From sequence record PQ657772.1: DNA of 64,000 nucleotides; one strand, 5' to 3'. The position numbers and the translations under genes were made by a program. The DNA is from Escherichia phage EC.P1. The notes under the pieces were generated by a model, which had not been told where the DNA came from, ran no database searches, and saw only the letters and a list, made by a program, of their open reading frames with translations. This document shows, piece by piece, positions 53,629 to 64,000 of the stretch. Numbering within the stretch: the stretch's first letter is position 1; each line of letters starts with the position of its first letter.

Positions 53629-56600
53629 ATGTCACAACAAAAAAGGCAATCAAATTTATACGCTGGTGAAGATTGGACTCAAGTATATGAAAGCTTTTAT
53701 AAGATCAATCTAACAGCTTATGACTTTGATACAATCCGTCAAAGTATGATTGACTATCTACGTGCTACGTACCCAGATTCGTTCAACGACTGGATCGAAA
53801 ACGACCAGTTCATCTTTATTCTAGATACCATTTCTATGCTAGGACAGAACTTAGCATTCCGTATGGATTTAAACACTCGTGAGAACTTCCTAGATACTGC
53901 TACTCGTCGTGCATCAGTACTGAAACTCGCAAAAATGATTTCTTACTCTCCACGCCGTTCATATCCAGGTCGTGCAGTTGCTAAATTAACAGAAATAAAA
54001 ACCAACCAAGACGTTCGTAATAGTTTTAACGAATCACTTAAGGATAAAATCATTCGTTGGAATGACCCAATGGACACAAACTGGTATGAGAACTTCATTC
54101 TAGTTATGAACAGTTCATTTGTCAGTACTAACCAGTTTGGTAATCCGGTTAAACGTATCGATATCAATGGTGTTTCTCGTCAGCTATATCGTATGAATAC
54201 AATTCCAATGTCAGCACCAAGTCTTCCATTCACAGCTACAGTTAATGGTGAATCGATGACATTTGAAGTTGTCAACCCTGATATTACAGCAGTTGGTGTT
54301 GAAGAGCGTCACCCTGAACCACAAGAGCAAAAATATATCGTTTATCAGAATGATGGTAACGGATTTAGTTCACCAAATACTGGTTTCTTCGTTTATTTTG
54401 TTCAAGGGACATTGACATACCAAGATTACCAATATAATATTCGTGAAGAAAACCGTATCCAAGACATCAACGTAGATAATATCAACGAAACTGATGTTTG
54501 GGTTCAGGAAATCAACGAAGATGGTATTGTACGTACTAAATGGACCAAAGTTCCATCTATGGAAAGTATCGCATACAATACTGTTAACCGTCAACTAAAA
54601 ACAATCTTTGCTGTCACAACTCGTGATAAAGACCAGATTACTATTAAGTATCCTGATTCTCGTAGTGGTGTTGTTCCTCGTGGGACGTATCGTGTATGGT
54701 ATCGTGTTAGTAATGGTGAAACATACAACATTAAAACGTCTGAAATCCAGAACAAAAGTGTAAAATACACCTATAGAACCAAAACACAATCAAGCTATGA
54801 ATCCAGTACTTTGGATATTCGTTTCACATTGCAATATGAATCAGATCGTGCACAAAGTGCAGAAACAATTGAACAAATTAAGGCTCGTGCTCCACAAATG
54901 TATTACACTCAAAACCGTTTTGTTAACGGCGAAGACTATAACATTGCTCCGTTGAGTTTGGGTAACACAGTTCTTAAATCTAAAGCAATTAACCGTTTAT
55001 ATAGTGGACAGTCACGATTCATTGATATTAATGATCCAACTGGTAAGTATCAAAACACTGATGTGTTTAGTGATGATGGTTCAATGTATCAAGAAAACAC
55101 ACAATTTAATAAATCTTTACAATTACCAACTACCAAAACAAATGCTAGTATTGTAATTGATAATATTCAGCCATTGATTGGTGAGAATGCTGTAATCCAA
55201 CGTTATCAAGCATATCCACCGAATACAATTGGTATTGAAATTCAACAAAAATGGACACCTGAATACAATTCTAATTACGCAACTAATACGTATGGTCGTA
55301 TTATGGGGGCAACAGGTAACGTATTCGGAAATTATCAAGTTGGTACGTTGATTAAGTTTTCAAATGCCGGAACTACTGTGTGGGCTAGTATTGTTAGTGT
55401 TCTTGATAATGGATATTACGTTCTAAGTACTTCAGTTTCATCAAATATGCAAGCACAAGAGTACATTTTACAATACAGAACACGTTTTAATAGTGTCGAA
55501 GTGCAAGCAATCGCTGCAATGCTTGATAAAAAGACAGATTTTGTTATTATTCATGATAAAGAAACAACTTCTTGGATTCCATTAGAAATCAGTACTGATG
55601 AAGATACTATTTCTTATAATGGAAATGAAGTTCTTGTTATGATTAACATCAAATATACTGCTGAAACATGGGAATTTGATGCGAATGGCGTTGAATATGT
55701 GTTCGTTGGTGGTGATAAAGTTCGTTTTTACTTCGTTTCTTCTAAAAAGATAACTGATATTAGTACTGGTAGTGTTCAAAGTGACAAAATTGAAATTTTA
55801 TCATCAAATACCACAAGCAATAGTAATGCTGGGTTAACAAGTAACATTGATTTCCAAATTTATGATACAATTCAACAAGAAAACGGGTATCTTGATGGTT
55901 CTCGTGTGGTTATCACCTCTGAAAACGTTGATAGTAATGGAATCCCACTAGAACCTAATCAATTCAGAGAAATTGTACCAAATTGGACTGGTGAAGATTC
56001 AGTTAAATATGGTGGTATATTGGTTTTCCAAGAAAACGATGATTTCACTATATCAGTACTGTCATTACCGAGCGATACTTTCACTATTCTTGATTCTTCA
56101 TGGGCTTATACAATGGATCAGGCACTTGCAGAAACTAATGCGTATAAGAGAAGTGAATTTGTTCGCAACAATGCTATTCGCTCAACAACATTGAGTGGTA
56201 TCTATAGTAAAGGTTCAGGCTTTATGGTTGGCTTTAAATACGATGGTAAATATTACTTCATAGAACAAACTGTTGGTAATAATAATGACCGTTTGAACCA
56301 ATTAATTGAGAACTTGACCTATTCTGATGATACAACTGCTGCAACTCCTGAACTTGCGTTTTATCGTGCTATTGTTAATATCGGTACTAATGCTGATGTT
56401 AACCAGAAGTTAGATTATTATGGTTATAAAGATGTAACTTCACAATATACCGTAAAAACGAATGCAAGAACTGGTATTGACTTCCACTGGAAACATTATG
56501 CACCAGATGATAATCGCATTGACCCAAGTAGAACAAATTTGATTGACATGTATGTATTAACCAATTCATACAAAACTGAAGTTGATGTATGGTTGAAGAA

Positions 56601-63100: not shown

Positions 63101-64000
63101 AAAATACTATTTCTGGGTTCGTGATACAATCTATGTACCACCATTGCATTCCAGAACTAAATCTTGTACTGATATTGCTCGTATTATTAAAGAACCAGCA
63201 CAGCTTAACATTCCTTGGTTTGCACCAATCAATGAAAGCTCGTTCATTCTAAGTAATATGCAATTTGAAGTCAACGATGACACAAGTATTTTAACTGTTT
63301 CTTATTACATGGATAATACTGAAGTTATTAAACATGACCAGTATCAATTATGTAAAGAAGGTGATAGCTATAACTTCAATCCATCAATCTGGACTTCTAT
63401 GTGGAATTCTATGATTGGTCAAGAAACTACTGAATCAGGAACTGTTATTGATTTACTATATCCTTTAGTACCAAACGGTTTAGGTTCTAATAAGACTTGG
63501 TTCCAAGATGTAATTGAAGCTCGTAGAAACTTTGTAGAAAGTGCAAATAACTATTATCGCTCACAGAATATAACAACTAACACTGTTCTAATGGACGAAG
63601 TGTTTAATGTTAAAACTACTGAAGTTAACCCGAATGAAGTATCATATCGTGTACTAACTTACAATAGTGAATTAGTCATTGCACCTGAAAGTGACAAGTT
63701 CAAAGAAAACGACGCAGTACTAGTAAGTACTAGTGGTGTATTACCTAACCCACTATCAACTAGCTCTGTATATTTTGTGCATATTGATGCTAATGGTTAT
63801 ATTCATCTAATGAATAGTCCATCAAGTGCTGGTAGTGTGGTTACCATTACATTGGAAAACCGTGGTGAAGGTCAACAGAAAATGATTAAACAATCAGACT
63901 ATGTTGAAGCACTAGGAACTTCATTGGACATGACCCAGTACTGGTCACTAGCAGATTGGTATGATATTGGCTACGATAAAAATACTGCATATACACAAGA
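57171..64000 (+). CDS. giant baseplate/tail fibre-like structural protein, 5' partial (>2270 aa, runs off window end)
   Basis: ATG 57171 with GGAG RBS; frame checked by eye to ~60060 and at window end with no stop; ORF track shows no stop-delimited ORFs in this frame. Confidence 0.6.
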   Translation, partial: MTNNFKFQPTQMAEAVQKKLFIKRLPEWMQGLEDIQKVSDDVIQQWFNPAENELVDGYIGDMGSPAAAGNIFLHESTVARQLYQLSSAYVSRNDDSSIRSIQFYDDLVGYMNHYGALTENESRLFNGKFYSWTPPINPNKMNNYSSYLWDSKNSYNITTPDYIVMERGAENGNTWSLQNFWYTLGETLEDGTILTEELMQDSRFVRARAPIIEYNKNIELMNYGTKFRGTVDLFSDIIKPEDIVQKDINSGIRIDGIIPQDGMRILFTSIGNNGENNRIYKVYVKRMQDGTRVYGLALDPDEESESRPSGEPQDGDVVLIIKGNEFGNSSMYWDGSHWIQAQSKTSVNVFPQFQLYDRNGVKLNNTTTYPSSTFTGSSLFGFKINYNYATDSVYGYNIELGDYNYYTYENFLQSTRYTYEHLGVEVEIDGLYYYNVIGEGNTMNLETDWVRSTEYSKQYVKQTPQVERTVMFRVFSTVYDMESFKDPVEGMYAYVIEVDRTYQYYKAERETYLDWHVIVGDGVQSVKYNHTFELAQKVLDNSEDIIELVVDGVEIKEYTKTVVNNQVQSITIDSSVDLDEDSVVQIRTYSSTITPNKELGAYEVPINLQNNPYNSNIEYINQGDYTLHFQDIIQKNITSGSADDFNNYEERLAAGLVNNGVGTKIIQNEASMLPLMAHTANEDIDLFESIMFMQAEYFRFINKFNTQMLRLYEEDPSAFLGNSASNIVDAILTAINMGRDSTFPFYYDNVASTAGFIRAFVPPTPQFLGILQAYTPQKATFLTAGSKSSWYNISHTGIISKAYRVINGVDKMDDVVFELENRIFNSIDLTFKDIDYKPVLNSEDLFPTPYFTGTDYSAEEKKTLLLRGYINFTATNGISNSTHDYDANNWRTWNYTGSYYVVDGQRTEIPARGSWRAIYTDQYGTYRPATHPWEMMGFSQRPTWWNQEYEPTAVQVGEREGDVVYVYEALVMNESGDLVPSGLWDIDGTIGDSSTGTILSGERRGQYDKYKRFGVQPFKITKTGEKTSTGIDICEVEYIAPEVLGLVSGNLDHRAEPWSYGDMGDMEFTYMNTAMFAYDQMLLLYKAKPAQFVNYYWDTRNDNLKPVYTDGSQFLYGETRKRLNFDSTTLVHGEKNTRTIGYQMFVSDYLMYQNKNITTKYGDVVRSSYVNVAHKIGGFTKADQLTFTAKSFGLISQENQTIGLVRSNNIRDEQMSAVKITWNGSAYQIDGYDLVGAKFKYKIPVKNGRKVTLKLEDRTVVHYNEWKSEGTLEYGKIFNTYQEVYTFICGYGEYLKEHGWIFEDVNDSGAQQDWTTIAKDFVIWSQNNLSTGEFISCTPSAANAKFGADFGSVQSVTQNSGGVWSLLDDENQGIRQYEIETSRIGNVFTVRTTSESQKRMALIRLSLSSYEHAVVFDDKTIFGDYIYQPTYGAIQELIKMYGYITGSWTGRLQAPGFIILEAGTLPSFEKLVTDFELYYNSETPVSDVQLQELSNHLIGYQTRDYLQRMISSDVSRVDFYKGFIHDKGTNQVMEKVLRVSKSYDTDEYKALQEWAFKIGTYGNINGKKNLQFKLINDQFKQQPQMVSFDVNATSNGTGNGIVYYGEQGVDSRWITRPNGKFSFPMRSGRSENIQLPDIGPVTLDEISYVTKDFSTAYNDRINYMNNSGEIPDSVWMFKDGNDLWNIFELVDTEVEMLSIVPIENTDVYAEQFCKVTLSDDIPLNDGDYYYFVDETNFMPDTLTIESQYYTAGNDPRVMVVPFDTSITIDFTDPDTRPRLYRYVSRFSTEEMRQEYIDRKYSFKAPQSTLFDRPTTYDERTNITALYLNVFDPINGVIPGAAMQNVTYTSPVDPAQYNSNGELIQAWGADKVGQVWWNTSTAFYLDYTRAIYDADGNVDVDATNEYKRYNWGRLLPHSTVDVLEWVCSPVEPYNWDKYCKDVANKNKNNTMYLPSGTALEDNYSTFLEYDSTTDTYVTKYYFWVRDTIYVPPLHSRTKSCTDIARIIKEPAQLNIPWFAPINESSFILSNMQFEVNDDTSILTVSYYMDNTEVIKHDQYQLCKEGDSYNFNPSIWTSMWNSMIGQETTESGTVIDLLYPLVPNGLGSNKTWFQDVIEARRNFVESANNYYRSQNITTNTVLMDEVFNVKTTEVNPNEVSYRVLTYNSELVIAPESDKFKENDAVLVSTSGVLPNPLSTSSVYFVHIDANGYIHLMNSPSSAGSVVTITLENRGEGQQKMIKQSDYVEALGTSLDMTQYWSLADWYDIGYDKNTAYTQ

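Follow-up and report, generated by a model that had tools for sequence, protein, structure and literature searches.

A giant virion protein in the gp7 slot of Rak2-like jumbo phages as a possible single-chain baseplate wedge scaffold

Introduction

In P2 (gene order W-J-I), in Mu, and in the type VI secretion system (TssE-F-G), the slot of the wedge subunit known as gp7, gpI, or TssG follows that of gp6 or gpJ. The same order is found in T4, where gene 7 lies directly after gene 6, and T4 gp7, with 1032 amino acids (aa), is the largest wedge protein of that phage. Here, we analyze a pair of very large genes at the end of a 64,000-nucleotide (nt) stretch of Escherichia phage EC.P1 (sequence record PQ657772.1), referred to below as the window. 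The first encodes a gp6-like protein of 1153 aa, and the second, which we call the giant gene, continues past the end of the window. A preliminary description made from the letters of the window had taken both products for baseplate proteins and had proposed that their size reflects an elaborate adsorption apparatus with multiple receptor-binding or depolymerase domains.

The products of both large genes have previously been catalogued as virion proteins in Rak2-like jumbo phages. The giant gene is known from annotations in dozens of jumbo phage genomes in GenBank and has its own PHROG family, and its product has been detected in virions by mass spectrometry (MS). In the virion proteome of phAPEC6, gp244 ("baseplate wedge," 131.18 kDa) was represented by 21 peptides with 24.2% coverage and gp245 ("hypothetical protein," 381.88 kDa) by 17 unique peptides with 7.6% coverage (PMC7247149). 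MS of CBB virions detected CBB_237, the gp6 homologue, and CBB_236, a structural protein with 21 peptides; the same paper aligns Rak2-like genomes by "the largest ORF" (open reading frame) and gives T4 baseplate homologues for CBB as gp6, gp25, and gp53 only (PMC5259590). That largest ORF (PBECO4 gp538, phAPEC6 gp245, CBB_236, and WPEC3 CDS390; PHROG 10938) is the same gene as the giant gene of EC.P1, and there is no difference to draw between them. The published work on Rak2-like phages consulted here assigns neither a function nor a virion location to its product. The best tail reconstruction has a resolution of 25 Å, and our literature search found no electron cryomicroscopy map of a Rak2-like baseplate that surpasses it.

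The giant gene occupies the slot of gp7-type wedge subunits

The structural genes of the window follow the order gp53-like wedge protein, 751-aa virion protein, gp5-like hub with lysozyme, second lysozyme, gp25, gp6-like protein, and giant (Table 1). The gp25-like gene named in the preliminary description is confirmed by its Pfam match, and the description of both large products as baseplate proteins is upheld by the order gp5-lysozyme-gp25-gp6-giant, by the PHROG "baseplate wedge" match, and by MS of orthologues, on which the virion presence of both proteins rests. Metagenomic relatives with only 20 to 28% identity keep the order gp25, gp6-like (1127 to 1164 aa), and giant (2847 to 3826 aa). 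The gp25 gene also keeps its place in the distant relatives L005 and L006, and in both of them the stop of the gp6-like gene overlaps the start of the giant gene. By analogy with the systems described above, a gene in the position gp25-gp6-X with such a stop/start overlap has the signature of gp7 orthologues. No other candidate for gp7, gpI, gp8, gp9, gp10, or gp11 was found among the neighboring structural genes. In one metagenomic relative, the genes next after the giant encode Gp34_trimer/Peptidase_S74 fibers.

We hypothesize that the giant protein is a single-chain wedge scaffold occupying the gp7/gpI/TssG slot, a reading to which we give a probability of roughly 0.5; the chances are likewise about even that the two genes form a conserved wedge pair of the Rak2-like (Asteriusvirus-type) jumbo myoviruses. 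The slot after gp6, the translational coupling in relatives, the virion presence, the compact predicted fold, the extreme conservation of length, the strong purifying selection, and the lack of any other gp7- to gp11-type candidate suggest that the giant serves the baseplate as a conserved structural chassis. The gp7 role, copy number, and docking function that we infer can be put together as follows. A helix-turn-helix at the N terminus of the giant would join the N-terminal helices of two gp6-like subunits, so that a (gp6)2-gp7-type core bundle might form beneath gp25; each wedge would then contain a single giant chain, and each virion six. The compact body of about 2,500 aa would then make up most of the intermediate and peripheral baseplate in one polypeptide, replacing the T4 set of gp7, gp8, gp9, gp10, and gp11, for which no homologues could be detected here. 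It would also offer docking sites for separately encoded fibers and spikes, and the last ~830 aa may represent a clade-specific distal extension.

The likeness to T4 gp7, P2 gpI, Mu gp48, XM1 gp17, and TssG consists of the location of the gene directly after those of gp25 and a gp6/gpJ orthologue and of a large, compact body of single-copy style, to which a helix-turn-helix at the N terminus may perhaps be added. The differences lie in size, the giant being 3.2 times as long as T4 gp7 and about 14 times as long as XM1 gp17, and in the absence of detectable sequence, profile, or fold similarity to gp7-type subunits. If the gp7-slot reading is correct, baseplates of jumbo phage contractile tails would scale up by enlarging one chain rather than by adding parts, and the giant would be the platform that carries the branched fibers of RaK2-type therapeutic phages.

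The stoichiometry proposed above agrees with the available size estimates. The CBB baseplate measures ~36 by 15 nm (PMC5259590), and by our rough volume estimate six giants (2.3 MDa) plus twelve gp6-like proteins (1.6 MDa) would fit easily in it. Further, MS coverage per length is lower for the giant than for the gp6-like orthologue (in phAPEC6, 7.6% versus 24.2%), which fits a copy number no higher than that of gp6.

Both large ORFs are genuine and are shared by independent phage genomes

The preliminary description had reported an ORF of 1153 aa followed by one of more than 2270 aa running off the window, and both hold. The ORF listing gives the former with an ATG start (Table 1), and the latter has 2,276 codons inside the window when counted from the ATG at 57171. 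A frame scan found no in-frame stop between 57171 and 64000; forward frame 3 is without a stop from 57132 to 63998 (2,289 codons), and the other two forward frames contain 109 and 344 stops over 57001 to 64000. At 36% GC, the estimated probability of such a run is ~1e-72, i.e., (0.93)^2289, making it essentially impossible by chance, and a chance ORF was rejected on this ground.

Sixty records match the 10.4-kb region that holds the two genes, and all are Rak2-like jumbo phages of Enterobacterales. Identity across the region is 99.8% with fEgEco12, 99.1 to 99.6% with WPEC3, WPEC5, Turkey3, and others, and 83.8% with PBECO4 (genus Asteriusvirus); at least 80% of the region is covered in 36 records, and nine independent phage genomes match all of it at ≥98.4% identity. 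The part of the giant protein encoded in the window is identical to the WPEC3 protein at 2285 of 2286 positions. The complete gene in WPEC3 and PBECO4 has 10,002 nt (3,333 aa as annotated; 3,323 aa from the conserved start), and the search for downstream sequence that the preliminary description had suggested thus places the stop, judged from these relatives, ~3.1 kb past the end of the window. Because the ORF is complete in WPEC3 and PBECO4 and is matched in independent genomes, an assembly artefact, a possibility that the preliminary description had raised, was rejected.

The start codon was chosen between two candidates. In the GenBank annotation of WPEC3 and PBECO4, the giant gene starts at the equivalent of ATG 57141, 30 nt earlier, giving 3,333 aa. 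We favor ATG 57171 (3,323 aa) because the N terminus then fits the conserved family pattern M-x-N-x-F-K-F-x-P and because a GGAG ribosome-binding site lies 8 nt 5' of this codon. Many database orthologues have 3,321 to 3,323 aa.

Both proteins fall into existing PHROG families over their full lengths (E = 0 in each case), the 1153-aa protein into phrog_10646 ("baseplate wedge subunit") and the giant, aa 1 to 3320 of which align with profile positions 1 to 3324, into phrog_10938 ("virion structural protein"). When the giant was searched as four segments, each aligned with the expected stretch of phrog_10938, and this model of the family itself was the sole PHROG match at E ≤ 5.

The 1153-aa protein is an enlarged gp6-type wedge protein

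Sequence comparison identifies the 1153-aa protein as a probable gp6/gpJ orthologue with roughly 500 extra residues. The PHROG family phrog_219 ("baseplate wedge subunit") matches aa 26 to 125 (E = 3.4e-21), and hhalign, with a profile of four sequences, aligned aa 28 to 121 with T4 gp6 residues 21 to 113 (E = 1.6e-3). A BLASTP comparison with T4 gp6 was colinear (E = 0.068). In baseplates of known structure, it is this N-terminal region of gp6 that makes up the wedge core bundle (PMC10457771). Thus, the likeness to T4 gp6 and P2 gpJ lies in a homologous N-terminal stretch of ~100 aa, in the position after gp25, and in the presence of the protein in virions.

The differences from these proteins are also considerable. 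The preliminary description had estimated the protein at about twice the size of T4 gp6, which is near the mark, the factor being 1.75 (1153 versus 660 aa), and the middle region of aa 450 to 1050 lacks an assigned counterpart in T4 gp6 or P2 gpJ. Neither Baseplate_J nor any other Pfam family was found in the protein at E ≤ 10, and a profile search of PDB sequences with its family returned no gp6. Its orthologues are labeled DUF8360, a jumbo phage-specific family, in newer Pfam releases. Their size is constant (1127 to 1164 aa) even in very distant relatives, and the ratio of nonsynonymous to synonymous substitution rates (dN/dS) against PBECO4 is 0.042.

Predicted structure of the giant protein

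AlphaFold2 was run with a 23-sequence alignment, and aa 1 to 1200 and aa 1201 to 2276 were modeled apart. The first part was predicted with a mean local confidence (pLDDT) of 87.5 and a predicted template modeling score (pTM) of 0.81, and the second part with values of 76.6 and 0.54. In the model, aa 1 to 1200 form a compact multidomain body of beta domains with a helical region at aa ~620 to 880, and no fiber is seen. Residues 1 to 19 are disordered in this monomer model and are followed by helices at 21 to 24, 27 to 30, and 33 to 47, with pLDDT values of 54 to 72. In XM1, the gp7 orthologue uses residues 1 to 48 as a helix-turn-helix with gp6-type partners (PMC10457771), and the low-confidence helices at 21 to 47 of the giant look suggestive of a candidate N-terminal helix-turn-helix that depends on a partner.

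Searches for known folds and families returned little. Foldseek against the PDB gave no match to the models of the giant at E ≤ 1e-3. CBA120 TSP4 ranked first (E = 0.017) through its N-terminal part, where the T4 gp10-like docking domains of that tailspike are located; the resemblance is weak (~80 to 100 residues with a large root mean square deviation), and the giant lacks a tailspike body. Other weak resemblances were to the collagen XV/XVIII trimerization domain, to N-terminal adaptors of podovirus fibers, and to pilin-, adhesin-, and Ig-like sandwiches. The gp10-like and fiber-adaptor matches to the models would be consistent with a docking function. Within aa 1 to 2276, neither an enzyme fold nor a receptor-binding fold of known type, such as a beta-helix or a propeller, was recognized. 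Pfam returned nothing for the whole 3,333-aa protein even at E ≤ 10, and hhalign of its family profile against T4 gp5, gp6, gp7, gp8, gp9, gp10, gp11, gp12, and gp53 gave probabilities below 1% throughout. Searches of PDB sequences with both proteins (phmmer) and with both family profiles yielded nothing relevant, the lone match being a chance one to a viral NSP2. The giant is therefore a 380-kDa protein with ~2,500 residues conserved over an enormous metagenomic family and with aa 1 to 1200 predicted confidently, and yet it resembles no solved structure.

A widespread N-terminal module, a conserved core, and a clade-specific C-terminal region in the giant

Homologues of the giant form 105 clusters, nearly all with lengths of 2,700 to 3,960 aa and with identities down to 22%. 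The region from aa 1 to ~2,500 is kept in all 105, and the last ~830 aa evolve faster among close relatives and are missing from distant ones or differ there. When a profile of the first 450 aa was searched against 1.84 billion representative proteins, 1,594 clusters (50% identity) matched at E ≤ 1e-3, of which 775 reached E ≤ 1e-30. Among the 150 top matches listed, most lengths fall between 2,200 and 6,281 aa, 122 of the 140 new ones have at least 2,000 aa (maximum, 6,281 aa), and the module sits at the extreme N terminus in every match listed. Of these further homologues, 113 have at least 2,500 aa; equivalents of aa 461 to 2290 are found in all 113 and the region of aa 2501 to 3333 in only 1. 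Members of 5,000 to 6,281 aa exist (e.g., P0157, P0214, and P0217), and some short matches to the N-terminal module (450 to 800 aa) may be truncated contigs or further split genes. Self-BLAST detected no internal repeats in the giant.

In a protein-guided codon alignment with PBECO4, dN/dS of the giant is 0.083 overall, ranging from 0.02 to 0.12 up to aa 2600 and from 0.08 to 0.14 beyond, with a single indel each way. A tblastn search of phage genomes found the C-terminal 1,047 aa once per genome, in Rak2-like phages only and in no other gene context. This region is colinear at 44 to 53% identity across eight host genera, including Klebsiella, Salmonella, Erwinia, Serratia, Pectobacterium, Yersinia, and Xanthomonas. 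Because it is colinear at such identities and occurs once per genome in Rak2-like phages alone, the C-terminal region appears from these comparisons to be clade specific rather than host specific.

One metagenomic contig carries the gene in two pieces (L004; JGI metagenome 3300033072, contig Ga0364570_10306, 1-17612). The giant gene is split there exactly at aa 447/454: the first ORF (P0090, 1332 aa) corresponds to aa 14 to 447 of the giant at 49% identity and then continues for ~880 aa in which faint RCC1-like repeats are seen, and the second ORF resumes at aa 454 at 40% identity. Two small ORFs lie between the halves, a serine resolvase gene and an OrfB_IS605/TnpB gene (IS607-type element). 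The combination of N-terminal module and RCC1 recurs in another cluster, P0092. The sequence of the split gene suggests that the break marks a domain boundary and that either part can function as a chain of its own.

It is tempting, although the odds are somewhat against it, to regard the giant as the founding member of a very large family of single-chain wedges with a chassis of ~2,500 aa that would take the place of the several proteins of the T4-type intermediate and peripheral baseplate, a universal N-terminal anchor of 450 aa, and lineage-specific distal extensions, whose folds lack a PDB counterpart and which would represent a distinct baseplate architecture of a major jumbo/huge-phage clade.

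Weighing of alternative roles

Several observations weigh against assigning the giant to the gp7 slot. Pfam at E ≤ 10, hhalign against T4 gp7, and the PDB profile search all failed to reveal any similarity to gp7, gpI, or TssG, and the models did not resemble the folds of gp7-type subunits with known structures. A profile of the N-terminal module of the giant gave no hhalign alignment with the N terminus of the gp6-like protein, although the corresponding domain-I units of XM1 are homologous to each other. The candidate helix-turn-helix is a low-confidence feature of the model, and the stoichiometry of the giant and its place in the baseplate are deductions of ours. The giant might instead be a peripheral baseplate arm or platform, possibly trimeric, mounted on a conventional inner wedge whose gp7-like subunit would be another small virion protein, e.g., the conserved 243-aa or 751-aa one encoded upstream. 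We regard this as unlikely, although it is the alternative that deserves most attention. It leaves the gp25-gp6-X order with its stop/start overlap, the signature position of gp7, to a protein of another kind, and the monomer model is compact (pTM, 0.81). Eighteen copies of 380 kDa, or ~6.9 MDa, would by our volume estimate be hard to fit in a baseplate of the size measured for CBB.

An elaborate adsorption apparatus, as the preliminary description had proposed, is indeed known for this phage group (PMC10253068). Its further proposal that the large proteins owe their size to multiple receptor-binding or depolymerase domains was not supported within the window. The domain scan that it had recommended detected no Pfam family in either protein at E ≤ 10, and the giant is colinear over its full length among phages of eight host genera and is under strong purifying selection. 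We consider a giant fiber or adhesin whose several receptor-binding or depolymerase domains set the host range improbable. No Pfam domain and no beta-helix, propeller, or other enzyme fold was found in aa 1 to 2276, and the C-terminal third, colinear and 44 to 53% identical across host genera, is unlike receptor-binding modules. This distal module is not exchanged by host, with one indel against PBECO4 and dN/dS no higher than 0.14. Fiber and depolymerase-type genes are separate; in RaK2 they are gp526 to gp534 and gp098 (PMC10253068). Downstream of the giant gene in WPEC3, a 713-aa gene annotated as "colanic acid degradation" has a weak, subthreshold pectate-lyase-like Pfam match and a 375-aa gene has a weak collagen-repeat match. 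Some distant members of the giant family do carry inserts (CBM_5_12 near aa 1,400, DUF642 inside the N-terminal module, FG-GAP, and TIG), and the inserted carbohydrate-binding modules suggest that parts of the giant are probably surface exposed and able to gain adhesin functions in other lineages. A host- or fiber-contact role is possible for the C-terminal third, of which ~1,050 aa lie outside the window. For host-range engineering, specificity should be sought in the separate fiber and spike genes and not in the giant.

In some other phages, the largest genes encode tape measures or injected enzymes, an example being orf181, the largest gene of phiKZ (PMC12676376). On such a reading the giant would resemble phiKZ gp181 or the virion RNA polymerase of N4. 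The latter is an injected enzyme of 3,500 aa. We consider a role of this kind very improbable and rejected the tape-measure and N4-like polymerase readings on fold, length, motifs, and gene position. Instead of a long helical ruler, the models show a compact, multidomain, mostly beta fold; a tail of ~125 nm would need ~830 aa of helix, and the giant, with 3,323 aa, is about four times that estimate. Pfam detected no polymerase or lysozyme motifs. The gene has gp6 on one side and the tail-completion genes on the other, and relatives show translational coupling with gp6. The gp7-slot scaffold remains the reading that we prefer.

Neighboring genes and candidate transcription signals

Table 1. Features of the EC.P1 window discussed in the text
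Feature	Position	Strand	Basis
gp55-like late sigma factor gene	45629-46570	-	annotated so in WPEC3
gp53-like small wedge protein, 104 aa	47331..47645	+	phrog_7145, phrog_232 "baseplate wedge subunit"; orthologue is gp53 in the CBB paper
gp5-like central hub/spike with tail lysozyme, 887 aa	49926..52589	+	Pfam Phage_base_V, DUF2345, Phage_lysozyme, weak M23
Free-standing second lysozyme, 162 aa	52627-53115		
gp25/gpW-type sheath-initiator wedge protein, 131 aa	53131..53526	+	Pfam GPW_gp25, E = 1.5e-8
Terminator-like hairpin (TTCG loop and T-run) after gp25	53532..53555	+	consensus scan, pattern match only
Late-promoter-like GATAAATA, one mismatch, ahead of gp6-like gene	53563	+	motif listing, pattern match only
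Enlarged gp6/gpJ-type baseplate wedge protein, 1153 aa, 131 kDa	53629..57090	+	phrog_10646, phrog_219, hhalign, MS of orthologues
Terminator-like hairpin (TTCG loop and T-run) between the two big genes	57097..57118	+	consensus scan
CATAAATA, one mismatch from T4-type late promoter TATAAATA, 37 nt before the start of the giant	57127..57134	+	motif listing
Giant N-terminal module, aa 1-450, predicted autonomous unit	57171..58520	+	AlphaFold2 model, split gene in L004, profile search
Giant conserved core, aa 451-2276 of 3,323	58521..64000	+	open frame, phrog_10938, AlphaFold2, homologues

The gp5-like hub is unusually large; in addition to an OB domain and DUF2345, it has a lysozyme at its C terminus and a weak match to M23 peptidases. 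The free-standing second lysozyme gene follows it. The unusual hub was already remarked on in the RaK2 paper for the orthologue gp078. On the far side of the giant gene, as seen in WPEC3, a gene for a Lon-like ATP-dependent protease lies directly after it on the opposite strand (28548-30836). It is followed by a gene for a 498-aa virion protein and then by one for a gp15-like tail-sheath stabilizer annotated as "tail sheath."

Each of the two big genes seems, from the sequence alone, to be preceded by a putative TTCG-loop hairpin and a near-consensus T4-type late promoter. Exact copies of TATAAATA occur at 46557 and 52602, just 5' of the genes for the 243-aa virion protein and the 162-aa lysozyme, and across the whole window such copies are not above chance (6 found versus 7.2 expected). 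The gp55-like late sigma factor gene is located nearby.

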